DNA of 64,000 bases from contig JAKJDL010000003.1 in assembly GCA_022705945.1 (NCBI GenBank), positions 20,257 through 84,256 of the forward strand, read 5' to 3'. The DNA comes from Candidatus Omnitrophota bacterium (GTDB taxonomy: Bacteria > Omnitrophota > Omnitrophia > Omnitrophales > Aquincolibacteriaceae). The translations under genes and the position numbers were made by a program. The notes under the pieces were generated by a model. It saw nothing but the letters and a program-made list of their open reading frames with translations. It made no database searches and was not told the DNA's origin. Positions 45,583 to 63,263 of the stretch are shown piece by piece; position 1 is the first letter of the stretch; each line of letters begins with the position of its first letter.

Positions 45583-46605
45583 TCATGATTCTTTCAGCGC
45601 AGTATCCGGATCGGGATCGCCCGCCGGAAGAATCTTTTGATTCGGATCGAGCGTCTCACCCTCGTTCTCAAGAGCGCGCAAAAGATCCAGCAATTGAATA
45701 ACCTTGGTCCGTTCAACAAGAAAAACCGCGTCCCCCCCCTGCCGCTTGCCGTAATAAGCATTTTTAGCAGGTATCTCATTCCCGAAATTGAAGATTTCTT
45801 CCCCGAAATCGCCCGTCACCCGGATCAGGTCATGAATGATATAAAAACCCAATTCGGCATCAGACCTATCCTCCTGATCGATAAATTCCCTGACATGGAA
45901 TCCGGCCAGCGCCATAAAAACAAGATCCATCCTGTCCTTGGTCATCTCCTTGGCAAACCTCCTGAGAGGTTCGATCCAATACCATTTCCCGCCGTCGTTT
46001 TTCCATTCATAAGTATTCGGCCCCAACTCGATAAAAACCTTGGCGGCTTCGACCGGTTTGAATGTGAAGATGCGTTTATCCCTCAGTCGGTAGAGGCTTG
46101 CCTGGAAAGAAGCCTTTAGTTCCGGAGCGGCAAGAATATAACCTCGTTCACCCAGCCAGCGCGCGTAGACTGCCCGTCCCACGGGCGATTCGCCTCCGAA
46201 AACAAGCGCCCACTCTTTCTTCCGATCGGTCATGATCCTGACCTCAAGGTCAGCTTTTTCGAGGCCGTATTCATCCCAATCTTTTTCGGCACGGAGTCGT
46301 GTCTGTTTTGATGCAAATCGGGCTGCCATCGCAAGTCCTTCCGCCATGCCGGAATCCGCAGGATAATCAACGGGAGAAGATATCCTCCAGCCGTCCCCGG
46401 AACGTTCCAGGAGAATTTCCGATTCCCTGGTTTTGTCCTTGATCGCAATCCCGGTAATTCTTTCTTCCGGATCCAAAACAACATCGCGGCTCACCTCGTC
46501 CGGAGAGATGGAGAGGATCTCCTTGTCCAAACGCGTTTGATAAAGATAGATCGCGACAACCGCGATGAATAGCAGGAAAATAACTATCGTCCGGCCGGGC
46601 TTCAT
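45583..46605 (-). CDS. DUF4340-domain protein (auxiliary component of GldG-type ABC systems)
   Basis: N-terminal signal anchor, then WRISSPVDYPADS...EYGL repeats typical of DUF4340; fourth gene of the GldA/F/G-like module. Confidence 0.6.
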   Translation of the reverse strand: MKPGRTIVIFLLFIAVVAIYLYQTRLDKEILSISPDEVSRDVVLDPEERITGIAIKDKTRESEILLERSGDGWRISSPVDYPADSGMAEGLAMAARFASKQTRLRAEKDWDEYGLEKADLEVRIMTDRKKEWALVFGGESPVGRAVYARWLGERGYILAAPELKASFQASLYRLRDKRIFTFKPVEAAKVFIELGPNTYEWKNDGGKWYWIEPLRRFAKEMTKDRMDLVFMALAGFHVREFIDQEDRSDAELGFYIIHDLIRVTGDFGEEIFNFGNEIPAKNAYYGKRQGGDAVFLVERTKVIQLLDLLRALENEGETLDPNQKILPAGDPDPDTALKES

Positions 46606-48020: not shown

Positions 48021-48796
48021 ACATTCTTCCAGTTGCGGGTCTCAATGGACCTGAGAGAAAGAAAAAGAAAATAGAAAAAAAAGAATCCGAAATAAACGAG
48101 ATCCCGAAGATCCAGGATCCCGTAAGTGAGATTTCGGAAATGCTTGAGCGGAGACATCGCGCTGATTAAAAGCGGCCACCCGCCCCCTCCCGCCATCGGC
48201 GCAAGATCCATCATCCAGAAAATCACAAGAAGACCGAATGTCCCCATGGCGCTCATCACGGAACTTTTGGTCAGAGTGGAGATAAAGACACCCGCCGCGA
48301 GATAGGCCACGCCCAAAACCCAAAAACCGAGAAAGCCGGAAAGCACAGGCCCCCAGTCCACTTCCCCCCCGAGCAGATGAAAAACCAAGAAATACCCGGC
48401 CAGGGGAACAAGCAATATTTCAAAAAACCAGATCAGTCCGAGCAATTTCCCGGCGACGATTTCAAGATCGGACAAGGGGTAGGTGAAAAGAAGCTCAAGC
48501 GTTTCATGCTTTTTTTCCTCGGCAAAAGAGCGCATGGTCAGGAGGGGCACCAGAAAGAGAAGGATCACGTTCACGTTCAGAAAAAAAGATCCGAAGATGT
48601 AATGCGTCTGGCTGAGATCCGGAAAACTTGAAAAACCCGCTCCCCGCGGATCCATGGAAATCTTGGCATAGCTCAAAACCAGCATGACAAAAAAGATGCC
48701 GGTGATCAGAAAGAACATGACGCCCGTTAAAACACCCGTCCAGGAACGAAAAAAAGATGCGAATTCTTTCCTGGCAATCGCAAAGACTTTTTTCAT
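48017..48796 (-). CDS. ABC-2 family transporter permease (GldF-like)
   Basis: Six TM helices; start ATG 48796 overlaps the ATPase stop by ATGA (track ORF extends to 48820). Confidence 0.75.
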   Translation of the reverse strand: MKKVFAIARKEFASFFRSWTGVLTGVMFFLITGIFFVMLVLSYAKISMDPRGAGFSSFPDLSQTHYIFGSFFLNVNVILLFLVPLLTMRSFAEEKKHETLELLFTYPLSDLEIVAGKLLGLIWFFEILLVPLAGYFLVFHLLGGEVDWGPVLSGFLGFWVLGVAYLAAGVFISTLTKSSVMSAMGTFGLLVIFWMMDLAPMAGGGGWPLLISAMSPLKHFRNLTYGILDLRDLVYFGFFFFYFLFLSLRSIETRNWKNV

Positions 48797-49791
48797 CCGG
48801 ATTTCCCTCCCTGGAACCACCCGTCCTTGAGAAGCTTCAGAAATATCTCTTCGAGTGTCAGCTGGTCCCGGCTGACCTCAAGGAGCGGTATCGCGTTCCT
48901 GACGAACATCTCCGAAACTTCGGGTCTCAGGTCGCGCGACTGCGACGTTTCAAGGCAAAACTTGATCTCCTTCTCATGCCGCTCAACAACCCTCACGTTT
49001 TCAACTCCGCGGATCCCGGACAAAAGCCGTTCGGCGGGTTCCTCACAATCCGCTCCGCCGACGGTCACAAAAATCGCTTCGCGGTCCCTAAGACACGCCT
49101 CAAGTTCTCGCACGGTTCCGCTCGCAAGAACCTTTCCGTGATGAATCATAATCACCCGGTTGCAGACCATGGAAACTTCGGGAAGAATATGGGTGGAAAG
49201 AATCACCGCGCGCGTTTTTCCCAAATGACGTATTAATTCCCGGATTTCCGAAATCTGTTTGGGATCGAGCCCGGTTGTCGGCTCATCGAGAATCAACACG
49301 GAAGGATCCCCGACAAGCGCCTGGGCCAATCCGACTCGTTGCCGGTATCCTTTGGACAAGCGCCCGATCAACCGTTTCGAAACATCCCCGAGACCGCAAA
49401 GTTCGACTTTTTCCTCGATATGAGCCCCGCGGTCCCTCCGGGGAACCCCTTTGAGCTCCGATACAAACGCCAAATATTCCCGGACCCGCATATCCGGATA
49501 AAGATTAACAACCTCGGGAAGATAACCTATGTTGCGCTTGGTCTTCTGCGGCTCCTTGAAGAGATCCATTCCGTCAATTTTCACATGCCCCGCAGTCGGC
49601 GCAAAATAGCCGGCCAGAATGCGCATAGCCGTTGTTTTCCCCGCTCCGTTCGGCCCAAGAAAACCGACGACCTCCCCGCGCGCGATCTCAAAGGAAAGGT
49701 TCTCGACAGCGGGATGCCGACCGTAGGTCTTGGTGACACTCTCAAAGCGGACAAGACCTTCGGTGGATCTCGGTTTCCGTACGTTTAGCAT
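48793..49791 (-). CDS. ABC transporter ATP-binding protein (GldA-like)
   Basis: Walker A GPNGAGKTT, signature LSKGYRQRVGLAQAL, Walker B ILDEPTTGLD. Confidence 0.9.
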   Translation of the reverse strand: MLNVRKPRSTEGLVRFESVTKTYGRHPAVENLSFEIARGEVVGFLGPNGAGKTTAMRILAGYFAPTAGHVKIDGMDLFKEPQKTKRNIGYLPEVVNLYPDMRVREYLAFVSELKGVPRRDRGAHIEEKVELCGLGDVSKRLIGRLSKGYRQRVGLAQALVGDPSVLILDEPTTGLDPKQISEIRELIRHLGKTRAVILSTHILPEVSMVCNRVIMIHHGKVLASGTVRELEACLRDREAIFVTVGGADCEEPAERLLSGIRGVENVRVVERHEKEIKFCLETSQSRDLRPEVSEMFVRNAIPLLEVSRDQLTLEEIFLKLLKDGWFQGGKSG

Positions 49792-49794
49792 GGA

Positions 49795-51006
49795 TCAGGC
49801 GGGTTCAATGCGCGCAAACTTCCGTTTACCGCACTGAAGAATGAAAGGTTTTTCGATTGTCAGGATATGCCGGGGATCCGCTATCTTTTCCTGATCGATA
49901 CGGACCCCCCCCTGATCGATCATGCGTCGCCCTTCACCTTTGCTTGAAACAAGTCCGGCGTTCAAAAGAAGCGACACGATATTGATTTTCTTCTCTGAAA
50001 TTTTTACGGAGGGAACCTCGTCAGGGAGCCCTTTCTTTTTGAAAATCTCGTCAAATTCCCGGGAAGCGTCCCGCGCGGCATCGGCCCCGTGGAAGAGCCC
50101 GACGATCCTTTCGGCCAGCTTCGCTTTCATCTGGCGCGGATGCAGGCTCCCATCTTTAAGCCCCCTGATAATTCCCTCCGTCTCTTCGGCAGGAAGCGCG
50201 CTCACGAACCTGTAAAACCGCTCCATCAGGGGATCGGGGATCGACATGACCCTGCCGAACATTTCTCTTGGCGTGTCTTTAAGCGCAATATGATTGTTCA
50301 GGCTTTTCGACATCTTCTGCACGCCGTCCGTTCCCTCGATGATCGGAAGCGTCATCACCACTTGCGGTTCCTGGCCGTCGGTCTTTTGAAGCTCGCGGCC
50401 AACCAGAAGATTGAATTTCTGATCCGTCCCTCCAAGCTCGATATCCGAGCGCACGATCACGGAGTCGTGCCCCTGCATCAGCGGGTAAAGGAATTCGACA
50501 AGAGCGATCGGATCTCCCGCCTTGAAACGTTTTGAAAAATCGTCGCGTTCGATTAGACGCGCTACTGTGTACTGGCCGGTCAGACGCAGGAAATCTTCGG
50601 AAGTCATTTTAGACAGCCACTCGGAATTATAACGAACCTCGGTTCTGTCCCGATCGAGAATTTGAAAGACCTGCTCCTGATAAGTTTTCGCGTTTTCTGT
50701 AACCTCGGCGGCTGTCAGTATCTTCCGCGTCTCGGAGCGGCCGGAGGGATCGCCTATCCTTGCCGTAAAATCACCGATAATGAACACCACAAGATGCCCG
50801 AGATCCTGAATTTGACGGAGTTTTCGCAACGGGACGGTATGCCCGAGATGAAGGTCAGGAGCCGACGGGTCAGCCCCGTATTTAACGCGCAGGGGACGGT
50901 TTTTTTTAAAAGAATCCGCAAGCTTGGCCTCGAGCTCCTTTTCGGAGATAAGCTCAACGAGATTCTCCTTGAAAATCCCGAGTTGTTCCGGAACAGGCTT
51001 GAACAC
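49795..51006 (-). CDS. tyrS: Tyrosine-tRNA ligase TyrS
   Basis: HLGH (PDLHLGHTVPL), KMSKS (KMSKSLNNHIAL), C-terminal S4-like domain. Confidence 0.9.
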   Translation of the reverse strand: MFKPVPEQLGIFKENLVELISEKELEAKLADSFKKNRPLRVKYGADPSAPDLHLGHTVPLRKLRQIQDLGHLVVFIIGDFTARIGDPSGRSETRKILTAAEVTENAKTYQEQVFQILDRDRTEVRYNSEWLSKMTSEDFLRLTGQYTVARLIERDDFSKRFKAGDPIALVEFLYPLMQGHDSVIVRSDIELGGTDQKFNLLVGRELQKTDGQEPQVVMTLPIIEGTDGVQKMSKSLNNHIALKDTPREMFGRVMSIPDPLMERFYRFVSALPAEETEGIIRGLKDGSLHPRQMKAKLAERIVGLFHGADAARDASREFDEIFKKKGLPDEVPSVKISEKKINIVSLLLNAGLVSSKGEGRRMIDQGGVRIDQEKIADPRHILTIEKPFILQCGKRKFARIEPA

Positions 51007-51155: not shown

Positions 51156-54100
51156 TTAAGCCGATCGTGCGATCAGGGACATCTTGACGAGCTCTGTCGC
51201 AAGTTCCGCGACATGGCTGATCACAAGCCCGTAAGTACCCTTTCTCTGCATTGCCATACCGTGATCTTGCATTTGTTTCAGAAGCGCTTCGGCGCTGGCG
51301 TCGGCAAACAATGTCAGCTGCACGGCAAATCCGGCAGCAATCAGTAGATCCTCATCCCCCATTCGCTCCCCGATCGCGACGTTCACGCCGCCCTCAAGCG
51401 ACGGAAGCAGCGCATCATCAAGGTGAATCGTCGCCATCCGGCCGTTCATCTGAGCAATGCGTCCGTTAAGCACAACCGCTTCGCTCTGGCCATCGCTGAT
51501 CGGATTCACTTTAAGGAACTTATCGAGGTCAGCGAGAACAGCGTTCCGTTCAGCAACGTTCGCGATGCCGGCTTTCCTGTTCTCGATCGCGATGCGGATC
51601 CGATCACGCAGCGACGCATCCCCCGAAGTTTCGAGCACCGGCGTCCCCCGGGGGGTATGTTTCCAAACATTGTGGAATGATCTCAGCAGAAGATAAAGCG
51701 CCCGCGGATTGTCCTTCAGGAGCCTTGAAAAAAGGCTTGATCCGGCATATACGACACCCCCCGCTTCAACATCGGCCCGATCATGAACGCGCGAAGATGT
51801 GATTGACTGGACCGTAGCTGACGGAATTTCCGGCAGGTCTTTCGCGGAAAAAATCGCGGAAAGAACTTCCGTTTCCGTCATTGCGGCATGGACGGTTCCG
51901 GGCACAGAAACCCCGGAAGCTTTGAGAAGTCTTATGAGCGCCTCTGTCCCGTTTTTAAGACTGTGCTCCAAACCATCCTGGACACGGATCGGAGCGATTC
52001 CGAAATAATATTCGCGAATCAACACCAAAACCTCGGCACTTACCAGTCTTCGAAGATTCATCTGATCCGGACTCGCAGTCACAGCCGCCCGCGCTTCGGA
52101 ACGGGATGCGGAAGTTTTTTCAGTAGGTATTTGCTTAATCCCCGCCGCGATCCGCAAAAGTTCAGCCTCTTGCGGGCTTAGGTGAAATTGCTTGACGATC
52201 GTATTAAACGTCTCTTGTACATCAGTATCCGCCGCGGCAGAAGAAGGGTCCAGAAAATCCAGAGCCTGGGACAACTGAGGTATCCCGCGGGGGATCCTGG
52301 ACTTCACAAGCTCGAAAACCTTCTTGCGCTCGCCCTTTTGACGCTCCAGCCGCGCCCGCTCAAACCCAGCCCTGCGGACGGCTAACGACCTCTCGAAATC
52401 CATCGCCCGCTCGGACAAAGCCTGCTCCTGCTGCGCGGCGATCTCCTTCAACTCGGCAGCATTCCTCTTCTTCTGGGTCTCCGTCTCCGCCGCGAAATCG
52501 CGACGCAACTTTGCCACTTCAGCAAGCAGCGCAGCCTCCTCGCCATCCTGGTCTTTCGCGAAAATCTTGAGTTCATTTTGGAGCGCTTGTTCGACCGACA
52601 CCCGAACACCTTCGAGCACTTGTTTCCACTGACCGGCGAGCCAGGTGCTCAAAGCATCCGCCTCGGTCTGCCTCCATTTCTTCTTGGCCTCGATCTTCGC
52701 GGCATCGCCATTAAGCTCGTTCCACACGGCACGCTCAATGTCGTTCAGGAGGTCATTCCGCATCACGGTAAAATTGGTCAGCGGAACAGGCTGACCGTGC
52801 CACAGGTCCACACCGGAGAGCACAGTAGCGCTGTAATACGGCATAGCTCTCCTACGGATCACTTTGGCCATGGGGACATCTTCCCCCCGCAGCGCCTTTT
52901 GCAGCGTCGATAGGCCGACGACATCCACATTCACCGGAAGCCCGGGTATGACGCGTTTAATTTTCGAGGACAACTTCTCCGCGCTCACCCGTTCAAACGC
53001 GCGGTCTCCCGCGACCACCACGATCAGATCCAGATCATTCGGTGTTTCTTTCCAGACATAACTCCCCATCACCGACAACTCCACCAGGGGCTCGACCTGA
53101 GATATCAGCTTGCTCTCATAAAGAGCAGCTATTATCGCCGTAATCTTGGCTTTGAGCCGAGCAATGCGTTCCGTGATCTTTGTCGCCGCCGACGGATCGG
53201 ACTTGGTCAAATGCGGCCACAGCCAGCTCCTCGACATCAGTCTCGCTACCGATTCACGGGCATCGGACACGATCAAACCGTCCTGGTTCGGATCAAAGGA
53301 CGGGATCTTGAAATCCCAGAAAGTGACGTCTGCCGCGAAGGGCTTGATGATCACTTCCAGCTTGCCGCCAACCTTGGGTCGGGCGGGCTTCGGCAGTCGC
53401 GTCACGGGCACTTCAACCCCCATAGCATTTCTCGAACGGATATTGAATATATCAAGGTGTGGAGCCTTATCCGTCACGGAATAGGAACCACTCTCATTTC
53501 CGTAGATATCATAGGTGGTCTCCTCATGCGTTTCCTCGGGTTCTTCCCTATAATCCGCAAGCAATGATTCCCCCCGCATATAGGCGGTCTGGATGCCTGC
53601 GACCTCATCATCGCTTAAAACTTTGTAGGTTCTGCTGTGTCCTCCAATCCAGTCAAAATAGCGCCTCAATTCTTTAAGTGATACGCCCGGGCCGGAGGCA
53701 ACCATCAACGAAAGGATCCCCGCGGCAAGGCGATGACTATCCTCACCAAATCTTTCCCTCAGACACTGCAAAAGCGCCGGAATCGCCATGGGATCTTTCC
53801 ATTCGCGAAAAACTCTCAGGATCGATTTATAGACGGAATCGGAGCGGGCATCGTTGTATAATTCGGCAATCAACGCGGAAAGCAGGCTTCTATCGCCGAT
53901 CTCGCCGATCGCATCGACCGCAAGAGCACAAACGTTGTCCCGCGGGTCCCCCAACAGTTCTATCAGCGCGTCAACGGCCTTGAAGTGCCTTAAAGCCCCG
54001 ACGAGCGATTTACTTGCTTGTTGTTGACGTTTCTGGTTTTTCGCTTCCCGGATGATTGCCGGCAGGGCCTTGCCCGCATTAAGGGATGCGCCGAGAGCCG

Positions 54101-57100
54101 CTGCCGCAAGCGCACAAACATTGTCCCGAGGATCCCCCAGCAGCTCGATCAAGCCATCGACCTCTTTGAGCTGGACCAGCGCCTTCACCAGCACCTCGGC
54201 CGCAGCCGGTTTACGCTTGATGTTCCTCGATTCCTGGAGTAGCGCAGCAACGGATCTTTTATCTCCCACCTCTAGCAATTCCGCGGTAACCGCGATGCAA
54301 ACACCGTCATCGACATCTTTAAGAGCTTTTATCAGCGCGTCGACCGATCGTGCGTCCTTGTATTCGGCTAGCGCACCAGCAAGCCGCTTCCTCAGTTCAA
54401 CGTGCGGACTGGCGACGAGCCGTTCCGCGAACACCTCCGCGACTCGCGGGGATTTTATTGAGGCGAGTACCTCAGCCGCCATGCTGGCGACATCCACTTG
54501 GGCATGGGATAAGAGCGGGATCACCAATTCGATGGATGCGGGATCCCTTAAACGGACCAAAGCCATTTTCGCTTCTTGATCCACTCTCGATCCATGGTAA
54601 GAGGAATACCGGTTATCTTCCAGCGCACGGACCAGCGCCGGGACCACTTTGGGATGATTCATCCCGCCCAAGGCCCGAACGGCGGCGCAGGAGAGAGGGA
54701 CATCTATATCCCTTTGCATCAGCGATATCAGCGGGTCAACGGCTCGAGGATCTTTTATTTCCCCAAGCGTCTTGATCGCGGCGATCCGGCGATCTCCGCC
54801 GCTACCATTATGGTTACCATCCCACCACTTCGGCTGGATGTCGCGAAGGACTTTCTGGAATTGCCTTTCCTGTTCAGGTGTCAGACGGGTTTCGGAACGC
54901 AGCGTTGACTGCGCCACCTTAACATTTCCCGCTCGAATGCGCAGCGCCGCTTGGGCAACATTCTCCGGAACTGCACCGGCGCCCGGTAAAATCCAGTTGC
55001 CCTTGATGGCTCCTTTCGGGTTATCCGGATCAAGACGTTCGATCTGGCCAAGCGCATGGTCAATCCAGAAATCGAGCTCCGCAGGATCCGTTTCCGGCCC
55101 CGTAACGGGAAGCTCGGGAGCATAGCTGTAGAAATCGACCTTGGTGTCCCAGTTGAACTGCTTTTCAAAAATGAGCCGGGAAAGGTGCATGCCGGTGGGC
55201 ATTTGAACCAAAATAGCGTTGGAGATCTTGGCGCCCTGCCGCTTCAAAAGGGCGGCACTAAACTCCGCATTCTGACCCGTGTGCATGGAATCCGCTTCGA
55301 TATCAAAAGGAACGGAAAGTCCCCCTTGTCCATTTCCAAACCCGAGGTCTGTAAGGTCCTTCGTGATAAGTTTGCTGAGCGTAACAGCCTCGGCAACCGC
55401 GCCGGGCCCCTTACCGGAAGCAAGAATGCGCTTGGGTTTGTATTTGAGAAAAGCCTCTACGGCAGCCTTGGCCGTCACTTCCAGTTTAGGATTTCCAAGA
55501 ACAATTAGGACGTCCGGATTCTGCGGTGCATTCTGATCTCGTTCCGCCAAAAATCCAAACACCGTCCCGACATCCGACGCTTGTCCCGTTTGCCCGGCTG
55601 TCTCCGTTTTGCGAGCTTCGGAGCGCGGGGTCAGGACATCAAGCACTTCCACGGTAACGCTTGCGCCGACGGGATTGAAGCTGCGGCCCCACGCCGTTCT
55701 GCCAAAATGGAATGTGATCCCGCTCATACCGGCAGGAATAGTCACGATCACATCGGTGTTACCGGAATAAGGCCCCTTCTTCCAAGACGGGTTATCACCG
55801 GGCCCGCTGATATAAAATCGCGCATCACCCGACGTTACGATATGCAGGCCCTTGCCTCCAAGGCCGCTCCCGGTGGAAGCAGACGCCCAGGTGTAGGAGT
55901 TCCCGCCATTCACCAACGTGTTGCCGTTCACCTTCGCGTCACCATAAGCGCTCCAGCCGCCGAGCACACTCCGTGCACTACCCATATCATAATTCTCCGA
56001 AGAAGGCTTCGTATCCGCCGAAGAATCGCGTTTCGGCTTTTCAGGGCGGGTGGCCACGGGAGTTGTCGCGGTCGGTGTAATATCGTCTTCGCTGTCCTTC
56101 TCTTCGCGCACTATGCCGTTAGCTTTTGTCACTGCAAATTGACTTGCCCGAGATTCGGAACGCCTTTTCACCTCACGCGCGGCCTCATGCGAAACAGCTT
56201 TCAAAATCAAATTCCTCTCTTTTTCAAAAAAGGCCTCAGCATCCTCACCGTTCAGCCCGGTTGCCGCTTGAAAGGTTTCAAGAATTTGTCCGGCAACATC
56301 AAAATAGTCCTGTCCCATTGCGTCGAGCGTTTTTCTCCCCTGCAACGCGGCCCAAAGCAGGTTGGTGTCTGCGGTCACATTCTTGACAAGATCCTGAGCG
56401 ATCCGCGAAGCCAGCGCATCAGCATCCACCCGTGATTCCGACCGCGGGGTCAGGACATCAAGCGCTTCCACGGTAACATGCGCTCCTTGCGGATTAAGCG
56501 GCTCCCCCCAGGCTTCGGCGCCAAAGTGAACCGTCACGTCAACCGCATCGGCCGGAAGGTCAAGAATCATGTCGGAATTCGCGGGGAAAGGTCCCATTTT
56601 CCAGGAGGGATTCGGGCCGGATCCGCTGATGTAATAATCCGCGGTCCCGGAAGTCACGACATGCAGCCCCTTGCCAGCAATACTCACAACAGGAACCGTT
56701 ACAGCCGATGCCCACCTCATCGTATTTCTTGCGTTAATCAGTGTGTTCCCCAAAACATCCGCATCACCCCACCACGACGTCCAGTTCCCGAGAATGCTCT
56801 GCGCGGAATCCATATCGTATTTCCCGGGTTCTTCGGTAAGGTTCACCCGATCAATCACCTTCACGCGATAGAAACGCTGTCCGGGAAGCTCGCCGCCCGT
56901 AAAACTTCCGTCATCGGTCCAAGATAGACTGTTAACGTCTGAAAAAATTCCTCTCTGCGCAATCTCCCAGTCTCCTTGCGTGAGGCTGTCACGATAGTCG
57001 ACCTGATAAATAAACCCGGGCTGGGTTTTAAAAGTGACTTTGAAATTGCCGTTTTCCTGTTTAAGGCCGCGAATCACGGGCGTTTCAACCGGAACAGGAA

Positions 57101-60100
57101 TCTCATATCTCCCTGCGTTCGGATCGATCGTATTTGCCAGGTTCACGGTTGCCGTGATCGGGTCCGTTGTCGAGGTTTCGGCCAGAACCCCTGTTCCCTT
57201 CTTCACGATCATCGCCCAACTATTCGCCGGAGCCGTACGAATCTCATTACTCCCCAAGTCTTCGAGCGCTTGATAGATCGATTCGCTTAAAGCGGGATTT
57301 ATATTCAAGCCGCTATTGTCAGCGACTCCAATCAGTACGACCGAACCATTTGGGATGGCGTTCAAGTAATCAGCTACCCCTTGTCTAAAAGCGGCATCGT
57401 ACTGATTTGCCCATGTATCAAAATGCTTGAATTCTTTGAACCGTATGCCGGTTTTTTCATCTAGGATCGCAATATTGACCCCCCGGGCGCCACCACCATC
57501 CACACCCTTACGGAACAAGACGGTCTTGCCATTAAGTTCAAACTTCACCGAACCACCGGAAGTTATCTGCATCACGGGATTCGTCACAAGCGGGATCGCG
57601 TTCTGCCCGTCAAGTGAGAAGCGCTGCTGAACCGCGTAATAGGCCGGTCTCGGATTGCGATAAATATCAAGAAGCCCAAAGTACTCTTCGTCATTATGTC
57701 CGTCCGGTTGGCCCCCGTTTTGCTCCCAACTGGGCGCCTGCGTCATGGGGTAACCATTTTTGTGCCACTCGTCGTTCCATTCAAAATAAAGTCCCCCGGA
57801 GATCACTCCATTCGTACGTGAGGAAGCAAGATTGAAAATGATCTCATCCCAGAGACCGCGATTGAAATCAGCCTGCACCTGTTCATCCACTCCGCTCGCA
57901 TAATGGCTATAGGCATCGGCCCCAAACTCACTGACGAATGCCGGACGGGTAGTAACTTTGGACCATTGCGAAAAGGCATCCCCAAAACTCCAGCCGCGGT
58001 AAAGCTGCAATCCAAAAACATGGACGCTCGGAAGATCAGCAACAATATCAGCGGTTTGAATACCACCGTCCAAGGTTTCTGGCGCATAATGATAGGGGCT
58101 TCCGAAGTACCACTGAACGATATGCGGATCCGCCATGAAAGTGATGACCACATGGTTCGTGTCCAGGCCTTTGACGATCTGGGCCGCCCGCTCTGTGTAT
58201 TCAACGGAATCCTGGAGAGTCGTAAAGGTGTTGTAGTAATAGTTGATATCCCATTCGTTCCCGATCCCCCATCCGAGGATCGCGGGATGGTTTTTAAAAG
58301 TGTTCACAACGCCGGTAATATTATTGGTCCTTGCGATCTGGCCGTAAAAAGGTGAATCGACCGGCATAATGACCTTGATCCCATGCTTGTAAAACTGGTC
58401 CAGAAGCGCAACCGCCTGCGCGTTGGTTCCCGGATCATAGTAGGGCCGGATCACATTGGCGCCCATCGCCGCCATCATGGGAATGTCATTCGTCGACCAC
58501 TTGAACATTTCCTGGCGATAGACAAGCGGATACCACTGCGGATCGATTCCCGGGGAGGTGGGACCCCAGTTAGCGCCTTTGATGGTCAACGCGTAAGGAG
58601 TTCCCAGCGTTCCGTCCGGTTTCCGCTCCTCGACGAAAATCCGGCGGTCCCCTTCTTTCGTATAGGTCACAGTCGGAAGATTGGGCACACCGAAAGTCTG
58701 CGCTACCACATCCCTCGCGGCAAGCAGAAACGCCGCAACTCCGGCAAGCATCGTCAAAAAAACCGAAGATGAAATACTAAAAACTGAAACCCTGCGATCC
58801 GAATCTTTTGCCGGGGACCGTCCTTTGCGCACCTCCGAGCGGACGGGAACAATCCTTATAATCTCCGGTCGCAAAACCTTCCATACTTGATGCGCTTCCA
58901 CTTTGGTGGTGTTAGTGAACTCGTATTCATCCCCCTCAGCTTCCGAAGGCGGACTGTGGCCTCTCGGCAACATGAACGTACTACTTTCCACAGTTGCTTT
59001 TTCGGGAACTTTCATCCATTCGCCTTCTTCGGGGAAATAATCGATCCGGAACGGTTGATTCATCTGCAAAGCATCCGGAAGAAGATGCAAAACGAGGTAG
59101 CTCAAATGAAGATTTTTAACATAATCAGACGGGGGAATATAAGAAACGGTGATCAACTTCTCCTGCTCGAGAAAATTATATACCAAGAACTGTTCGCTCT
59201 CTTTTCTTTCGTACAAACTGATCTTCTCCAGAGCTTCGCTCGGAATCAGTTCTTTCAATTGTTCGATCGCCCGAAGAATACCGGGGGCAGCGAGATGGGA
59301 AGAATGCATCAAATAATGAACCAACCCATCCAGATCATTCCCCCGGATAAAACGGCGAACATTCACCCAGAAATCAGCCCAGAAATAAACCCAGAAATAA
59401 GCCGGGAAATGAGCCCGGAAATAAGCCCCTCGGAAATGCCGGAAAACTAAAACCAAGATTCCGAATCCGGCCAATGTGACAAAACCGACTAGAGCATCTC
59501 CCATATCTAAACGCACACTGGCAGCGGCATTGGCTAAAAGACTCGTTGGGTCGATTGTAACACCTGCTGCGCCGACAGCATGCGCAATAGCGGGCACCGA
59601 AAAAACAAATTCATGCATTCGGGCTTCCGAGCGGGATTTGTAATCATCAAGCTGTTTTTTGTAACGCGTCACGCGATCCTGCGCTTCGGCCTCCTGTTTT
59701 TTCAGGATCTCCAGACGCCTGGATTCATTAGACCTCGGATTCCGTAATTTTGTTGGGTCCCGCTCTAGCCTCCGGATCTCGTTCCCAATCACGTCAAGAT
59801 CCGACTGCGCGCGACGCAGAAGGGCCTCCAGCCACTCCCCGTCTGCGTCATAAGAGGTCTTCACCGTTTCGCCGCGAGTTTCAGAGCGGGGTGAGGCGGA
59901 GCCGTTCCCCGAACTTTGCAATGCGGTATAAAGAATCCCCAACGGGCCCGAAAGCATAGGATAGTGCCCTGCGACGGAAGTTTCGTGATCAGGGAAGCGG
60001 CCCCAGGGGTTTGGAGCGGTCAGGGTCGCGTGAATAGCACGAATACGCTCAACCACCCATAACTTTTGCAAATCTTCAAATACGCTTCCTCGCCATTCGT

Positions 60101-63100
60101 CAACATCCCCAAGGTCGCCCAGGAGATTAAGAACCGCCTCATGGGCCGCAATCTTGCCGGCAACCGACTTGTCATCCCCCAATGTAATTTCAAAAATGCT
60201 TTGCTCCCCAGTCCGGACCTCAAGCGTCCAGATGGCGGTATACTCCTTCAAATAAAGACTCAACGTCCCAAGCGAAGCGATCCGCTCCTCCCCCACAAAC
60301 TTTTTCAAAAAATAGCGACCACTCTCCTTGACAAGAGCGACATCCTGGAACTTTTCACGCGCCAGCCCCGGCCAGCCTGCCGGTATGTGCCGAGACTGAG
60401 TCGCCCGCGCTTCGGCGCGAGGTTTGGCGGCAAAAATGTCCAGATTAACACGCACCCGGGGAGCATCCTTGTGGGCATTCGCGATCGTCACCCCAGCGCC
60501 GTTGTCCATTCTCACATGGTCGCGAGCCGCCTGATAGTTCGCAAGAACAATCGGTCCCCGGCGGTCAAACACAAGACGGATCCTCTCATCGAGAATACTG
60601 GGAGACCCTTGGGACAGAAGGATTTCCAGGCTCTCCAGAAACTCCCTCCCCCATCTTTCCCAGGAAACATGTTCCACCACAAAACCGGAATATACCGGAT
60701 CTTCATGCATGGCGGCTTCGATCTTTTTACGCACCGCACCGGTCGCTAAAGGATAAAGTTTTTCCGGATCTAACCTTGCATTGCGGACCACCCTCAAAAC
60801 ATGTCCGGCAATGACCGCGATTATTCCCGCAGCCGCCCCAAATACACCCGTTAGCCTCGGGAACACCCCCCTCCCGGTTGCAGCGCCTTCCACTCGTGCT
60901 TCGGAGCGGAGTGAGGCGGTTACACCCTGTTCCTCACGGATGGCCTCCAATATCCTCTTCCTCTCCTGGTAAAGAGAACGGAGACTGGATCGTATGGATT
61001 CCAAAGTTTTTTCGATCTCCGGAAGCCTGCGGGGAGCATCAGCCAGCGCTTCAGGCGTCAAACCGTAATGTCTTGTTCGTAAACGATTCCGTTCACCAAT
61101 AAGTTGAAACTCCTGCTCCTGCAATCGCCAAATATCATCCTGGACGGTATCCCAGCGGCGAGATGTGTCCACCGGCACAGCATCCGACGCTTGTCCCGTT
61201 TGCCCGGCTGTCTCCGTTTTGCGAGCTTCGGAGCGGACACTCGATGTCGCGATACCGGCCGCTTTCTTGAGACGGACGGCAAGGTCCTGGGTGGCTTTGA
61301 GATCGTGTTTCACGACAGTCTGCGCCGCGCGATAAACCATCAGGGCTAACTTCTGCGGATCAATGCCGTAGGAAGTGCCTTCGGGAGCGGAAAAAACCTT
61401 CGGATCGGAAAGAAAAACCGATTCGTATGTGGATTTTAAAACCGGAGCTGGAGACTCATGGCCGGGGACCCGTTTTCGTCCTTCGTTCTGTTGAGCCCCG
61501 GGTTGCGAGGTTCGAGCCCTGGTCCGCAAGATGTGAGCGATATAGGCCCGATGCCCTTCCTCATCCACCCCGCTGATAAGCGGTGAAATGAGCGCGTAGG
61601 TATAATTCCTGGACGCAAAATAATCCTTGAAGGGCTGTGAGTGGAAACCTCCCGTAATAACCGCCGCTTTCCGGACCCCGGTCTCACGGAGGCGTTTTTC
61701 GACCTTTTCGATCATCGCAAGATCACGCGCTTTGACTCCCGAATAAAATTCCATCGCGGAATCATAGAGCGCATCCAACTCCGCCAAATGATCGAATTGC
61801 ACGTTTTTGATCTTGCGGATACCGGATTGGGGACGGAGGATAGCGCTTTCAAACCTGCGGGCAATACCTGAGGGGCTCAAGCTCCCTTCGTCTTCCGTCG
61901 TTCGCCGACCGATTTTTTCATAATCATCAGCCGTCAATTCCAGCGAAAACAGTTTCTGCAGGAGCCGATAATCCCTGAGCATGCCGACGATCTTCTTTTC
62001 CGTCTCGGTCTTCGCGAGTTTTTCGGCAATCATGTCCGTGAGTTTTGAAACCTCACCCATGAGACGGTCTGCCTTAAGCTCGCTCGATAAAAGCAGCGTC
62101 CCGATAAAATACCGGACATTCGGGAAAGCGGCATAATTGAAATCCTTCGGAAGGAGTCTGACCATATCCTCAAAAAGTAAGCTTGTTTCGGGATCGGGAA
62201 GCTGCCGGCTCATCGAATCATTTCGAAGCAATGATTCGACCGAGGACACAAGACCGCCGGACCGTAAAGCCGCGGGCTCATGGCTTGCGGCATGTGCCGT
62301 GCGGTGTGTGTCTTGTGGAATAAAACGCCGAAGAGCTTTGAGAAATTCATCCCGTTCTTTTTCAAAAGCTTTCCCGTTAAACTGCTGATGCAGTTTTTTC
62401 AATTTGAAAAAACGCACCATCATCGGCCATTGAATTTGAAGCGCGGCGTTTCGGAGGTCCATTTTGAGGGATCTTTCCGATTCCTCTCCGAGACAGGATA
62501 ACCAGGCGTCAAACGGCATGAGCTTCTTTTCAAAGGAATCTTCGGAACGGAGAAATTTCCGGAGATTGTCGTTCAAATAATGACTGGAGAGCCGGCTGAT
62601 CCCTTCATCCATATTTCTGAGGAACCGGGATGACTTTTCCTTTTGATTCAGTACAGTCACAAAGGATTCACCGTTCGCCCGATAGGTTCCGATGTCTTCG
62701 ATTCCCAGCGCTCTCGGCAAAGGGGTCCGCGGCGATCCGGCGGAAAATCGGTTTGCGTTTTTCTGCAGTTTGTCCAGCAAATAGAGTTCGGGTCCCTTTA
62801 CGATTGCGTGCTTCGTAAGCTCATCCGCCACACTTTGCGTCAGTTTGGGATTGCCGGGAAAAAAATTCAAAATGTCCGGATCAAGTTCGTAAGCGCTGCC
62901 TTCCACGAACACTGTCTGGACCCCGTGATTTTCATCCAGATAATGAAGTATCTCGCGGATTTTCTGCTGAGCTTCATAATGCCCGTGAGCGGTCTGGATA
63001 TGAATGATGCTGGCACCTTGTCCCGTGCGGATATCCTCGACCTTTCCGAGATTTTGAGGAAGCGCGAGCTTCAGACTTGAATCAAGCGCCACCTGGTAAG

Positions 63101-63263
63101 GGAGCCTGGTTTCAGCAATTGACGGCATCGACGCGGCACCGAAAGACACTCCGGGCGTCCAGATCGTGGTGGCAATGAAAGCAACCAGAGTGACAAGGGC
63201 GGTAACAGACTTACTTTTGCGGAAGGACAAACTGGAAACATTTGCACTGTGGTTGCTGTCCAT
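51156..63263 (-). CDS. Giant (4035 aa) multi-domain secreted/membrane-anchored protein of unknown function. Domains are itemised in the findings: signal anchor, TraB/GumN/Tiki-like, GH-A glycoside hydrolase, ILEI/PANDER-like, tandem-duplicated unknown domain, DUF218-like, HEAT repeats, minimal nucleotidyltransferase motif, coiled coils.
   Basis: Uninterrupted 12,108-nt reading frame on the minus strand. N-terminal MDSNHSANVSSLSFRKSKSVTALVTLVAFIATTIWTPGVSFGAAS signal anchor. Internal domains were recognised by motif: GNEW/SEFG for the glycoside hydrolase, GS...DLDLIVVVAGD for the nucleotidyltransferase, HEAT/PBS-lyase repeats. Nine RSE[ATSV]R motifs. The AT-rich 380-bp upstream region and a terminator-like hairpin downstream suggest a monocistronic unit. 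Confidence 0.85.
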   Translation of the reverse strand: MDSNHSANVSSLSFRKSKSVTALVTLVAFIATTIWTPGVSFGAASMPSIAETRLPYQVALDSSLKLALPQNLGKVEDIRTGQGASIIHIQTAHGHYEAQQKIREILHYLDENHGVQTVFVEGSAYELDPDILNFFPGNPKLTQSVADELTKHAIVKGPELYLLDKLQKNANRFSAGSPRTPLPRALGIEDIGTYRANGESFVTVLNQKEKSSRFLRNMDEGISRLSSHYLNDNLRKFLRSEDSFEKKLMPFDAWLSCLGEESERSLKMDLRNAALQIQWPMMVRFFKLKKLHQQFNGKAFEKERDEFLKALRRFIPQDTHRTAHAASHEPAALRSGGLVSSVESLLRNDSMSRQLPDPETSLLFEDMVRLLPKDFNYAAFPNVRYFIGTLLLSSELKADRLMGEVSKLTDMIAEKLAKTETEKKIVGMLRDYRLLQKLFSLELTADDYEKIGRRTTEDEGSLSPSGIARRFESAILRPQSGIRKIKNVQFDHLAELDALYDSAMEFYSGVKARDLAMIEKVEKRLRETGVRKAAVITGGFHSQPFKDYFASRNYTYALISPLISGVDEEGHRAYIAHILRTRARTSQPGAQQNEGRKRVPGHESPAPVLKSTYESVFLSDPKVFSAPEGTSYGIDPQKLALMVYRAAQTVVKHDLKATQDLAVRLKKAAGIATSSVRSEARKTETAGQTGQASDAVPVDTSRRWDTVQDDIWRLQEQEFQLIGERNRLRTRHYGLTPEALADAPRRLPEIEKTLESIRSSLRSLYQERKRILEAIREEQGVTASLRSEARVEGAATGRGVFPRLTGVFGAAAGIIAVIAGHVLRVVRNARLDPEKLYPLATGAVRKKIEAAMHEDPVYSGFVVEHVSWERWGREFLESLEILLSQGSPSILDERIRLVFDRRGPIVLANYQAARDHVRMDNGAGVTIANAHKDAPRVRVNLDIFAAKPRAEARATQSRHIPAGWPGLAREKFQDVALVKESGRYFLKKFVGEERIASLGTLSLYLKEYTAIWTLEVRTGEQSIFEITLGDDKSVAGKIAAHEAVLNLLGDLGDVDEWRGSVFEDLQKLWVVERIRAIHATLTAPNPWGRFPDHETSVAGHYPMLSGPLGILYTALQSSGNGSASPRSETRGETVKTSYDADGEWLEALLRRAQSDLDVIGNEIRRLERDPTKLRNPRSNESRRLEILKKQEAEAQDRVTRYKKQLDDYKSRSEARMHEFVFSVPAIAHAVGAAGVTIDPTSLLANAAASVRLDMGDALVGFVTLAGFGILVLVFRHFRGAYFRAHFPAYFWVYFWADFWVNVRRFIRGNDLDGLVHYLMHSSHLAAPGILRAIEQLKELIPSEALEKISLYERKESEQFLVYNFLEQEKLITVSYIPPSDYVKNLHLSYLVLHLLPDALQMNQPFRIDYFPEEGEWMKVPEKATVESSTFMLPRGHSPPSEAEGDEYEFTNTTKVEAHQVWKVLRPEIIRIVPVRSEVRKGRSPAKDSDRRVSVFSISSSVFLTMLAGVAAFLLAARDVVAQTFGVPNLPTVTYTKEGDRRIFVEERKPDGTLGTPYALTIKGANWGPTSPGIDPQWYPLVYRQEMFKWSTNDIPMMAAMGANVIRPYYDPGTNAQAVALLDQFYKHGIKVIMPVDSPFYGQIARTNNITGVVNTFKNHPAILGWGIGNEWDINYYYNTFTTLQDSVEYTERAAQIVKGLDTNHVVITFMADPHIVQWYFGSPYHYAPETLDGGIQTADIVADLPSVHVFGLQLYRGWSFGDAFSQWSKVTTRPAFVSEFGADAYSHYASGVDEQVQADFNRGLWDEIIFNLASSRTNGVISGGLYFEWNDEWHKNGYPMTQAPSWEQNGGQPDGHNDEEYFGLLDIYRNPRPAYYAVQQRFSLDGQNAIPLVTNPVMQITSGGSVKFELNGKTVLFRKGVDGGGARGVNIAILDEKTGIRFKEFKHFDTWANQYDAAFRQGVADYLNAIPNGSVVLIGVADNSGLNINPALSESIYQALEDLGSNEIRTAPANSWAMIVKKGTGVLAETSTTDPITATVNLANTIDPNAGRYEIPVPVETPVIRGLKQENGNFKVTFKTQPGFIYQVDYRDSLTQGDWEIAQRGIFSDVNSLSWTDDGSFTGGELPGQRFYRVKVIDRVNLTEEPGKYDMDSAQSILGNWTSWWGDADVLGNTLINARNTMRWASAVTVPVVSIAGKGLHVVTSGTADYYISGSGPNPSWKMGPFPANSDMILDLPADAVDVTVHFGAEAWGEPLNPQGAHVTVEALDVLTPRSESRVDADALASRIAQDLVKNVTADTNLLWAALQGRKTLDAMGQDYFDVAGQILETFQAATGLNGEDAEAFFEKERNLILKAVSHEAAREVKRRSESRASQFAVTKANGIVREEKDSEDDITPTATTPVATRPEKPKRDSSADTKPSSENYDMGSARSVLGGWSAYGDAKVNGNTLVNGGNSYTWASASTGSGLGGKGLHIVTSGDARFYISGPGDNPSWKKGPYSGNTDVIVTIPAGMSGITFHFGRTAWGRSFNPVGASVTVEVLDVLTPRSEARKTETAGQTGQASDVGTVFGFLAERDQNAPQNPDVLIVLGNPKLEVTAKAAVEAFLKYKPKRILASGKGPGAVAEAVTLSKLITKDLTDLGFGNGQGGLSVPFDIEADSMHTGQNAEFSAALLKRQGAKISNAILVQMPTGMHLSRLIFEKQFNWDTKVDFYSYAPELPVTGPETDPAELDFWIDHALGQIERLDPDNPKGAIKGNWILPGAGAVPENVAQAALRIRAGNVKVAQSTLRSETRLTPEQERQFQKVLRDIQPKWWDGNHNGSGGDRRIAAIKTLGEIKDPRAVDPLISLMQRDIDVPLSCAAVRALGGMNHPKVVPALVRALEDNRYSSYHGSRVDQEAKMALVRLRDPASIELVIPLLSHAQVDVASMAAEVLASIKSPRVAEVFAERLVASPHVELRKRLAGALAEYKDARSVDALIKALKDVDDGVCIAVTAELLEVGDKRSVAALLQESRNIKRKPAAAEVLVKALVQLKEVDGLIELLGDPRDNVCALAAAALGASLNAGKALPAIIREAKNQKRQQQASKSLVGALRHFKAVDALIELLGDPRDNVCALAVDAIGEIGDRSLLSALIAELYNDARSDSVYKSILRVFREWKDPMAIPALLQCLRERFGEDSHRLAAGILSLMVASGPGVSLKELRRYFDWIGGHSRTYKVLSDDEVAGIQTAYMRGESLLADYREEPEETHEETTYDIYGNESGSYSVTDKAPHLDIFNIRSRNAMGVEVPVTRLPKPARPKVGGKLEVIIKPFAADVTFWDFKIPSFDPNQDGLIVSDARESVARLMSRSWLWPHLTKSDPSAATKITERIARLKAKITAIIAALYESKLISQVEPLVELSVMGSYVWKETPNDLDLIVVVAGDRAFERVSAEKLSSKIKRVIPGLPVNVDVVGLSTLQKALRGEDVPMAKVIRRRAMPYYSATVLSGVDLWHGQPVPLTNFTVMRNDLLNDIERAVWNELNGDAAKIEAKKKWRQTEADALSTWLAGQWKQVLEGVRVSVEQALQNELKIFAKDQDGEEAALLAEVAKLRRDFAAETETQKKRNAAELKEIAAQQEQALSERAMDFERSLAVRRAGFERARLERQKGERKKVFELVKSRIPRGIPQLSQALDFLDPSSAAADTDVQETFNTIVKQFHLSPQEAELLRIAAGIKQIPTEKTSASRSEARAAVTASPDQMNLRRLVSAEVLVLIREYYFGIAPIRVQDGLEHSLKNGTEALIRLLKASGVSVPGTVHAAMTETEVLSAIFSAKDLPEIPSATVQSITSSRVHDRADVEAGGVVYAGSSLFSRLLKDNPRALYLLLRSFHNVWKHTPRGTPVLETSGDASLRDRIRIAIENRKAGIANVAERNAVLADLDKFLKVNPISDGQSEAVVLNGRIAQMNGRMATIHLDDALLPSLEGGVNVAIGERMGDEDLLIAAGFAVQLTLFADASAEALLKQMQDHGMAMQRKGTYGLVISHVAELATELVKMSLIARSA
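55571..55625. repeat. 55-bp exact intragenic direct repeat, copy 1 (partner at 61182..61236)
   Basis: CATCCGACGCTTGTCCCGTTTGCCCGGCTGTCTCCGTTTTGCGAGCTTCGGAGCG is identical at both sites and encodes RSEARKTETAGQTGQASD on the minus strand. Confidence 0.9.
59366..59447. repeat. Intragenic 12-bp tandem repeat (about 5-6 units) encoding aromatic tetrapeptide repeats A-[Y/H/D]-F-[R/P/W]
   Basis: CCCAGAAATCAG/CCCAGAAATAAA/CCCAGAAATAAG/CCGGGAAATGAG/CCCGGAAATAAG... read on the minus strand as AYFR-AHFP-AYFW-VYFW-ADFW, next to predicted TM helices. Confidence 0.85.
61182..61236. repeat. 55-bp exact intragenic direct repeat, copy 2 (partner at 55571..55625)
   Basis: Same 55-mer as 55571..55625, about 5.6 kb away within the same ORF. 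Confidence 0.9.

Follow-up and report, generated by a model that had tools for sequence, protein, structure and literature searches.

A strict R-[S/A]-E-x-R pentapeptide marks the module junctions of giant Omnitrophota proteins and is a candidate site for their separation

How does a bacterial cell deal with a single polypeptide in which unrelated enzymes, repeat arrays and export signals follow one another, and what marks the borders between these units? The question is raised by a stretch of 64,000 nucleotides from the contig JAKJDL010000003.1 of a Candidatus Omnitrophota bacterium (assembly GCA_022705945.1; hereafter “the window”), in which one open reading frame (ORF) on the minus strand runs over 4,035 codons. 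Giant proteins of Omnitrophota have been described and are proposed to undergo proteolysis; the study that described them states that it is not known if, or at which points, cleavage takes place, a gap that prevented a structural analysis (West-Roberts et al., 2023, bioRxiv 10.1101/2023.11.21.568195). An earlier reading of the letters of the window alone (hereafter “the original prediction”) had noticed a recurring RSE[ATSV]R motif at the module boundaries of this giant, and had taken it as the linker or cleavage motif of a polyprotein-style arrangement. In this work, the pentapeptide R-[S/A]-E-x-R is found to be a family-wide mark of module junctions. We further propose, with moderate confidence, that it serves as the separation site of a polyprotein, in the simplest case through a specific endopeptidase on the cytoplasmic side, and that the DNA encoding it doubles as an in-frame crossover point.

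The window protein contains ten RSE.R pentapeptides, all ten of the form RSE[ATSV]R, together with an eleventh site of the same motif class, RAEAR (Table 1); composition alone would give 0.09 RSE.R and 0.026 RSE[ATSV]R. The recurrence first noticed is real, and the list of nine or more sites drawn up at that time was short, as it omitted KRRSESRASQ at residue 2368. An enrichment of the kind that had been suggested as a check is also found, ordinary ORFs of the metagenome loci described below carrying 0.11–0.15 sites per thousand residues (kaa) vs. 2.1–2.7 in the giants. Besides the giant, the sole RSE[ATSV]R in a real gene of the window is GRSETRK in TyrRS (49795..51006, minus strand). It is a coincidence; this stretch of the catalytic core is kept in the TyrRS of relatives (L001, L003, and L004). 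Proteome-wide motif scans would pick it up as a coincidental match.

The window protein belongs to a very large family. An exact-match look-up of the protein in a contig collection gave no record. Nine homologues of its residues 1–676 were found in a word-indexed protein collection, the four with a source label all coming from Omnitrophica/Omnitrophota, and the N-terminal domain (N-domain) is 34–50% identical to that of the members P0001–P0007. A metagenome scan with the N-domain gave 46 loci, in each of which the domain opens a very long ORF, most of these running off the 10-kb flank at approximately 3,900 residues. A profile search run exhaustively over 1.84 billion cluster representatives returned 7,979 clusters (50% identity) at E ≤ 0.001; the best 150 of these 7,979 reach up to 7,823 residues, and nearly all carry the N-domain at the N-terminus, two of them having it internally. 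We will refer to 40 non-redundant metagenome ORFs (89,386 residues) as the “locus set” and to 153 cluster representatives (440 kaa) as the “independent set”. The shared architecture consists of a Sec signal peptide, the N-domain, variable cargo modules and a conserved C-terminal module (C-module). The window protein has all of these, with a signal peptide followed by an N-domain of approximately 600 residues, a C-module of approximately 310 residues behind a motif, and R-[S/A]-E-x-R junctions. A homologue search of the word-indexed collection with the C-module gave no match, and a search with an alignment of 134 motif instances collected 65 candidates, none of them scored. In one locus (L096, 7312..14736) the giant ORF is broken by a single in-frame stop (12052..12054), situated in a low-complexity stretch between two RAEVR sites, past which the frame goes on with six further motifs and HEAT repeats; this stop could be a sequencing error, the mark of a pseudogene or a genuine split.

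Across this family the motif is both highly enriched and highly strict. RSE.R or RAE.R emerged without any prior pattern as the commonest gapped pentapeptide in the metagenome giants. R[SA]E.R occurs at 244 sites in the locus set (4.8 expected) and at 939 sites in the independent set, where RSE-Φ-R (Φ being V, A, L, M, I, T or S) was observed 699 times vs. 4.5 expected, approximately 156-fold, and RAE-Φ-R 168 times vs. 6.7. A motif variant tops the recurring pentapeptides in approximately 78 of the 99 members of at least 2,000 residues. In the locus set, Arg is preferred over Lys by 232:4 at the first position and by 232:1 at the fifth, Glu over Asp by 232:1 at the third, and the fourth accepts aliphatic or small residues only (V > A > L, M, T, I, S). 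The second position is Ala at 85 of the 244 locus-set sites and at about a fifth of those in the larger set, the S/A alternation being lineage-specific; in some lineages Pro, Thr, Asn, Gln or His is found there. The flanks are non-homologous and hold almost no information, save for small residues at −3 to −1 and +1. Such data leave practically no chance to an artefact, be it a compositional or repeat effect behind the motif or an assembly or gene-calling error behind the giant ORF. The protein is indeed rich in R, S, and E (6.7–7.0% each in the window protein), and one pair of sites lies within an exact DNA repeat; this explanation is refuted by an enrichment of at least 100-fold over composition in three independent data sets with non-homologous flanks, by an architecture of N-domain and C-module that is shared by no fewer than 39 complete proteins found in many samples, and by a gene position between LpxA and TyrRS that is kept across relatives.

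About 5% of adjacent motifs lie 30 residues or fewer apart, including conserved double junctions such as RSEARSSLR..TGAVRAEVR and RAEVRRAER..PIGRRAEVR. Examples are found in L092 (residues 1796/1813, 1934/1951, and 3782/3799), L100 (2526/2547, 3651/3672, and 3785/3806) and P0035 (2229/2249/2269). They could be redundant sites, sources of released spacer peptides or scars of deleted modules.

The position of the motif with respect to folded modules is equally regular. In every complete member the first motif stands behind the N-domain and the last one where the C-module begins, 240–365 residues before the C-terminus, and the spacing between motifs is domain-sized (median 172–222 residues). A drop in hydrophobicity and a rise in Pro, Gly, Ser, and Thr are confined to approximately 5–10 residues around the motif, and the residues adjoining it are of low confidence in both AF2 models. 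No motif falls inside any of the 10 Pfam envelopes of five proteins, in agreement with the earlier claim that the sites lie between recognisable domains, and motifs bracket whole enzymes (Ugd, GDH, and a NagB/Pgl-type enzyme). The NagB/Pgl-type domain begins 11 residues past one motif and ends 30 residues before the next; that of UDP-glucose dehydrogenase (Ugd) begins 12 residues past its motif, with the Rossmann GxGxxG about as placed in the stand-alone enzyme. In both cases, the motif occupies roughly the position of the stand-alone start codon. Module content is highly variable among related giants, and different giants show little similarity outside the terminal modules. The homology blocks that they do share are bounded by motifs: BLASTP blocks start within −10 to +30 residues of a motif in 48% of cases vs. 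8% in shifted controls, and end there in 28% vs. 7%.

Is it the peptide or its DNA that is being kept? The exact 55-bp direct repeat reported in the original prediction does exist, its second copy lying at 61181..61235, one base away from where it had been placed. The peptide RSEARKTETAGQTGQASD, described then as SVRSEAR... occurring twice, is shared from the motif Arg onwards, the preceding residues being SSV in one case and LTP in the other. To the left of the junction at residue 2547, the DNA is 89% identical to that at junction 2274, the end of the duplicated beta-rich domain; rightwards from the first motif codon, 55 bp are identical to junction 677. This hybrid junction reads as a crossover exactly at the motif, and bears out the module shuffling by recombination that had been suggested from the repeat. 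Codon usage inside the motif also departs from the gene background: the first Arg is CGC or CGT (CGY) in 85% of cases vs. 42%, Ser is TCC in 62% vs. 22% and AGY in 4% vs. 31%, Ala is GCC in 66% vs. 32%, and the last Arg is CGG in 48% vs. 22% (CGG/AGG being preferred, although the window protein lacks the CGG bias). In L100, 10 of the 16 junctions are the identical 15-mer CGCGCCGAGGTGCGG.

Wobble bias so far past background, the 15-mer of L100, the crossover at the motif with a 55-bp repeat that begins at its first codon, and homology blocks that end at motifs amid greatly varying module content would all suit a primary role at the DNA level. The 15 nucleotides, with consensus CGC-[T/G]CC-GAR-GTG-CGG, would then be a cassette boundary or recombination signal for in-frame module exchange, likened to integron core sites or to demarcation motifs of the VENN type in polymorphic toxins, and the peptide would be incidental. 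We hold this to be improbable, recombination at the motif being expected anyway as a by-product. The pattern is found in the coding frame of one strand only (143 vs. at most 6 in the other frames); synonymous variants occur at every motif position with the amino acids fixed, and codon changes at the fourth position stay within one chemical class; Glu codons are at background usage; the S/A alternation follows lineages; and no recombinase was seen in the 64-kb window or conserved beside the giant gene. For these reasons, selection acts on the motif peptide, at least also. Possible sources of the extra nucleotide uniformity are recombination that homogenises the junctions, a toggling of Ser and Ala within NCC codons, and a role at the level of translation. 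Two further nucleotide-level candidates were rejected. A DNA hairpin or palindrome finds at best a CGC/GCG pairing around a mismatch, in a frame- and strand-specific pattern with no inverted repeats at the junctions. A start of translation inside the gene, at the fourth motif codon (often GTG or ATG), is at odds with Ala, Thr or Ser at that position in approximately 28% of sites (7 of 11 in the window), and neither an upstream stop nor a purine-rich stretch accompanies it.

The segments that follow the motifs bear on the fate of the chain. A transmembrane (TM)-like segment lies within 40 residues past the motif at 66 of 921 sites (approximately 7%), 2.4 times chance (27.6 ± 4.7 at random), and no enrichment is seen before motifs (23 cases). 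Among 20 internal Tat-like signals, 13 lie within approximately 25 residues past a motif, i.e., in 10.7% of the sequence (12 of 19 when one duplicated sequence is counted once, binomial 5e-8), as do three of five lipobox signals. Some examples are RSEAR-LSQDSFEVPV-SRRDFLRTAALATAGFFLLPAGTARA and RSELR-VRSVIQRVTIFAAVAAMAGLVGC, together with SRRDFLR...ARA and ...LVGC lipoboxes. In the window protein, three motifs had been described as followed by signal-peptide-like segments. A hydrophobic stretch does start 9–17 residues past those at 786 and 1475, and the one at 1211, starting 3 residues past the motif, is weaker. The segment behind the sixth motif (residues 1480–1520), a putative Tat or Sec signal peptide whose free N-terminus would depend on cleavage, has a basic n-region with RR, a 25-residue h-region and VVA/Q, and directly precedes the weakly matched TIM-barrel and ILEI region, as had been claimed for the glycoside hydrolase. 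A signal peptide behind every motif, as a general rule, is ruled out by the approximately 7% of motifs concerned. Taken together, the structural elements of a polyprotein-style arrangement proposed in the original prediction (a junction mark, export signals belonging to single modules and shuffling at the motif) are supported by the comparative data.

Tat and lipoprotein (Lgt/Lsp) signals act at a free N-terminus from the cytoplasmic side. An N-terminal hydrophobic segment is present in 132 of the 149 family members that start with Met, and enzymes of cytoplasmic type are part of the cargo behind it: a GDP-mannose-dehydratase-like epimerase, a 2-hydroxyacid dehydrogenase, glutamate dehydrogenase and UDP-glucose dehydrogenase, with source labels on some giants naming adenylate kinase, FBPase, and GalU. 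L088 has no TM segment between the signal peptide and such enzymes, and L092 no internal TM segment at all in 3,867 residues. In one uncut chain, these enzymes would leave the cytoplasm behind the signal peptide. This paradox vanishes if separation at the motifs takes place on the cytoplasmic side, as each module would be routed by its own N-terminus.

It is unlikely, in our view, that the protein stays whole, with R[SA]ExR as a linker motif that is bound and not cut (a structural staple or a docking site for a partner such as the HEAT or C-terminal module, a chaperone or an envelope component) and the hydrophobic segments as the usual TM helices of a polytopic protein. Large multi-enzyme proteins that stay uncut are known elsewhere; a 2026 preprint takes the giants as membrane-anchored single polypeptides (10.64898/2026.06.07.730766). 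HEAT repeats, a typical peptide-binding scaffold, occur in three of the five shortest complete members scanned, and a consistent polytopic topology can be drawn for the window protein. An uncut chain nevertheless leaves unexplained the canonical Tat and lipoprotein signals directly behind motifs, the enrichment of TM segments behind but not before them, the motif at the start-codon position of stand-alone enzymes, and the NAD-dependent and central enzymes that follow a Sec signal without a stop-transfer segment in L092 and L088.

Under the separation reading that we favour, the giant ORF would be a cellular polyprotein that does the work of an operon within one reading frame. Its cargo changes fast, and many of the modules are complete proteins of ordinary kinds: enzymes of sugar-nucleotide and central metabolism, a glycoside hydrolase, arrays of HEAT repeats, and proteins that are exported or anchored to lipid. 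At each junction R-[S/A]-E-[aliphatic or small]-R lies in a short linker, and we infer that it is the recognition site for cutting the chain. The likeliest agent is an endopeptidase of high sequence specificity, which would act on the cytoplasmic side while translation goes on or soon afterwards. The released modules may then take their own routes: enzymes that lack a signal would remain cytoplasmic, Sec would export the N-domain, and modules that open with an anchor or with a Tat, lipoprotein or Sec signal would undergo export or insertion. Because they are the only sequence common to all junctions, the approximately 15 nucleotides of motif DNA would be the favoured in-frame crossover for the duplication, swapping and deletion of modules, and a shared junction of this kind would explain how module content changes so fast while remaining in frame.

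Several points weigh against such a separation. The cleavage is putative, and no split orthologues have gene ends at motifs. The co-encoded protease that the original prediction had proposed to look for did not appear, no peptidase gene being found in the 64-kb window and none being conserved beside the giant gene; the sole conserved enzyme-like core domain, the N-domain, is apparently exported and belongs to a superfamily that includes esterases and haem binders. The internal signals were detected with simple home-made hydrophobicity and regular-expression rules, and their counts are approximate; export signals are in any case the exception among motifs, and, since module content turns over fast, recent fusions could have left the internal Tat and lipoprotein signals behind as relics. 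A site that works purely at the peptide level does not predict the marked codon bias seen within the motif. Finally, five members (P0093, P0100, P0124, P0079, and P0066) carry the N-domain but virtually no R[SA]ExR. Of these, P0093 has 5,936 residues and the source label Verrucomicrobiae. Some motif-free members show Ala-rich recurring patterns instead, and such members are natural controls for a comparative-genomic hunt for a cognate enzyme.

Regarding the agent of separation, Ser-dependent autoprocessing (N-to-O acyl shift) is ruled out, as Ala replaces Ser at about a third of the sites. A co-translational separation on the ribosome, a bacterial counterpart of the viral 2A “stop-carry-on”, or a programmed pause that times the folding and targeting of modules, seems very improbable to us. 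It would suit the different codon preferences of the two Arg positions (CGY vs. CGG/AGG), which matter to decoding and not to a protease, as well as the need for a separation on the cytoplasmic side when neither the window nor the conserved neighbours offer a protease, and the use of one strict motif at all junctions whatever the context. Nonetheless, conservation is limited to five residues, with an upstream flank free of information, whereas known nascent-chain effectors need longer sequences in contact with the tunnel; the last Arg of the window motifs is not CGG-biased; and no 2A-like mechanism is known in bacteria.

The N-domain deserves separate consideration. It shares the alpha/beta core of the EreA/ChaN/TraB/Tiki superfamily, which comprises proteases (Tiki, RRSP) and also esterases and haem binders, with the hydrolase-type fold of the Tiki and RRSP proteases and a helical insertion of approximately 300 residues. 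No Pfam family matches it at E ≤ 1 (TraB, Erythro_esteras, and Cofac_haem_bdg included), its profile has no sequence match in the PDB, and Foldseek gave nothing significant. In the family, H88, Q90, H93, E121, E189, R284, R513, D514, T537, G538, G539, F540, and H541 are invariant, and E159 and R235 nearly so; the invariance of H88, Q90, H93, E121, E189, R284, R513, D514, and GGFH541 across 33 sequences suggests that the N-domain is probably an enzyme. Of these residues, H88, H93, E121, and H541 would be the candidates for the catalytic His/Glu/His signature of the superfamily. Its Sec signal peptide makes it a poor protease candidate for cytoplasmic junctions, and its action could be limited to extracytoplasmic junctions at most. 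The C-module, which ends in ...[I/L]xx[S/A/M]A across the family, was rejected as a protease, its model being a generic Rossmann/HAD/PTA-like one without invariant catalytic residues. Among the five shortest complete members scanned, three (P0082, P0027, and P0067) consist of N-domain, HEAT repeats and C-module, which makes it plausible that these three parts form the core that took up cargo; in the other two, the middle part is UDP-glucose dehydrogenase (P0064) or is without a Pfam match (P0022).

In three variable loops of their N-domain, P0001 and P0007 carry in-frame inserts of the type “EYGVRSTA...TPYAFRRT”. A DNA palindrome (GAGTACGGAGTACGGAG / its reverse complement) translated in frame gives the peptide pair YGVRS / RTPY, and the sequence suggests that these inserts are short palindromic repeat elements within coding sequence. 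The inserts that the window protein has at these loops are unrelated (residues ~166–183, ~318–340, ~455–470, and ~584–614; about 61420..62770, minus strand).

The features of the giant ORF are collected in Table 1. In the long module between motifs 10 and 11, the segment VMGSYVWKETPNDLDLIVVV (residues 3398–3417; 53013..53072, minus strand) resembles the GS...DxD signature of the nucleotidyltransferase fold, without a Pfam match.

Table 1. Features of the giant ORF and their positions in the 64,000-nucleotide window (aa, residues of the giant protein)
Feature	Position	Strand	Remarks
Giant ORF, 4,035 aa	51156..63263	-	Complete Omnitrophota family member: signal peptide, N-domain, cargo modules and C-terminal module
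Sec-type signal peptide, aa 1-44	63132..63263	-	Basic n-region RKSK, h-region VTALVTLVAFIATTIW, c-region PGVSFG/AAS
N-domain, aa ~60-676	61236..63086	-	Alpha/beta core of EreA/ChaN/TraB/Tiki type with large helical insertion
Junction motif 1, RSEAR, aa 677	61221..61235	-	Directly behind the N-domain
Exact 55-bp direct repeat, copy B	61181..61235	.	Extended 61170..61235 at 94% identity (66 bp)
Junction motif 2, RSEAR, aa 786	60894..60908	-	Hydrophobic segment aa 804-820 next
Junction motif 3, RAEAR, aa 949	60405..60419	-	Ala variant, absent from the list of the original prediction
Junction motif 4, RSETR, aa 1126	59874..59888	-	
Junction motif 5, RSEAR, aa 1211	59619..59633	-	Followed by hydrophobic aa 1219-1235 (weak) and aa 1258-1274 (strong)
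Junction motif 6, RSEVR, aa 1475	58827..58841	-	
Signal-peptide-like segment, aa 1492-1516, VSVFSISSSVFLTMLAGVAAFLLAA	58716..58790	-	KGRSPAKDSDRR before, RDVVA/QTFG after; precedes the glycoside hydrolase module
TIM-barrel glycoside hydrolase-like region (weak GH2_C/GH72 matches), then ILEI domain aa 1927-2023	57195..58691	-	Pfam
Beta-rich duplicated domain, copy 1, aa 2149-2273	56445..56819	-	Ends ...VLDVLTP right before the motif
Junction motif 7, RSESR, aa 2274	56430..56444	-	
Junction motif 8, RSESR, aa 2368	56148..56162	-	
Beta-rich duplicated domain, copy 2, aa 2425-2546	55626..55991	-	
Junction motif 9, RSEAR, aa 2547	55611..55625	-	Hybrid: left flank homologous to site 7, right flank identical to site 1
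Exact 55-bp direct repeat, copy A	55571..55625	.	Encodes RSEARKTETAGQTGQASD; 55560..55625 at 94% identity (66 bp)
DUF218 (YdcF/SanA-like) module, aa 2584-2706	55146..55514	-	Begins 32 aa past motif 9
Junction motif 10, RSETR, aa 2789	54885..54899	-	
HEAT-repeat module, aa 2826-3122	53898..54788	-	Begins 32 aa past motif 10
Junction motif 11, RSEAR, aa 3721	52089..52103	-	Directly ahead of the C-terminal module; 314 aa from the end
Conserved C-terminal module, aa 3726-4035	51159..52088	-	Rossmann/HAD/PTA-like alpha/beta fold; ends ...LIARSA

The setting of the giant gene is ordinary chromosomal, with TyrRS and a GldA/F/G-type ABC system downstream and the C-terminus of an LpxA-like gene upstream; DnaE, DnaG, RpoD, GuaA, IleRS, and a type II secretion ATPase are found farther off in the window. 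The neighbours conserved among relatives are housekeeping genes only (LpxA upstream, TyrRS downstream, aromatic amino-acid genes, and S1). Rfam and tRNA scans of the window gave no match within the giant gene. The window TyrRS is 76% identical to that of Candidatus Omnitrophica UBA1443, and two of the five closest loci are named Omnitrophica/Omnitrophota metagenome-assembled genomes; TyrRS thus assigns the window to Omnitrophota. The ABC system directly downstream of TyrRS is a four-gene set of gliding-motility type (45583..49791, minus strand) with ABC_tran, an ABC-2 permease, a GldG-like ABC_transp_aux protein and DUF4340. The secretion ATPase (1106..3214, minus strand) is of type II/IV (MshEN and T2SSE) and has a fused C-terminal response-regulator receiver domain; type II secretion genes have been reported near Omnitrophota giant genes (West-Roberts et al., 2023).

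What would a separation at the motif mean? A wider claim, which we regard as quite possible without calling it probable, is that a major lineage of Omnitrophota makes part of its ordinary proteome, including housekeeping cytoplasmic enzymes, Tat substrates, lipoproteins and membrane proteins, as chromosomal polyproteins dismantled at R-[S/A]-E-x-R by a dedicated and highly specific activity (a new protease or a ribosome-level one), with the 15-nt junction as an in-frame recombination site. This would represent a cellular alternative to the operon. If separation is true, a cellular organism would use a viral polyprotein strategy for housekeeping genes, with implications for the way in which ultra-small cells save on promoters, ribosome-binding sites and regulation, and a new high-specificity pair of protease and tag may be at hand. 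A strict family-wide motif also turns the question of giant cleavage into doable experiments and computations, and in silico splitting of the giants at R[SA]ExR opens the way to structure and function prediction.

Compared with what has been described, the closest known systems include the Omnitrophota giants themselves, which share with the window family the phylum, very long ORFs tiled by unrelated Pfam domains, signal peptides and TM segments, and a suspected post-translational cleavage (West-Roberts et al., 2023; 10.64898/2026.06.07.730766). The catalogued giants have at least 10,000 residues and C39, S8 or SecA-DEAD domains, whereas the window protein has 4,035 residues and none of these domains; the 2026 preprint also distinguishes a “multi-enzyme metabolic cluster” class of giants. 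The R[SA]ExR junction motif and the architecture of N-domain and C-module did not turn up in term searches (motif, linker, cleavage) of the two preprint texts, and full-text literature searches for the motif strings gave nothing relevant and no published description. The motif is the first concrete candidate for where Omnitrophota giants may be cut apart.

Viral polyproteins, MARTX toxins, gingipains and polymorphic toxins are functional analogues only, and the window protein belongs to none of these groups. Viral polyproteins (picornavirus 3C, potyvirus NIa/TEV) also make unrelated units as one chain, with a short and strict protease recognition sequence in the linker at each junction; unlike them, the Omnitrophota giant is a chromosomal cellular gene between housekeeping genes, it carries housekeeping enzymes and export signals, and its cleavage is putative. 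MARTX toxins (Vibrio RtxA) have loosely defined cut sites (a Leu in a loop) in place of a strict pentapeptide, and their entry into secretion is by type I, whereas the giants carry ordinary metabolic enzymes and enter by a Sec signal; Pfam and NCBIfam scans of the whole window protein found no RTX repeats, CPD domain or type I secretion signal. The gingipains of Porphyromonas gingivalis are secreted bacterial polyproteins whose domains are freed by cuts past Arg or Lys at conserved junctions, made by a protease domain of the same family. In contrast to the giants, these proteins (RgpA, Kgp, and HagA) rely on a C25 cysteine protease fold, have few modules, all of them extracellular adhesin domains, and lack an R[SA]ExR consensus. 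In polymorphic toxins, the demarcation motifs (VENN in CdiA, PxxxxDPxGL in Rhs) are short conserved peptides whose DNA, at the border of conserved and exchangeable parts, is a crossover point for module replacement, to be compared with the hybrid junction at residue 2547. Polymorphic toxins have a single border per protein and follow a toxin/immunity logic, whereas the giants described here have up to 32 junctions and no immunity genes.

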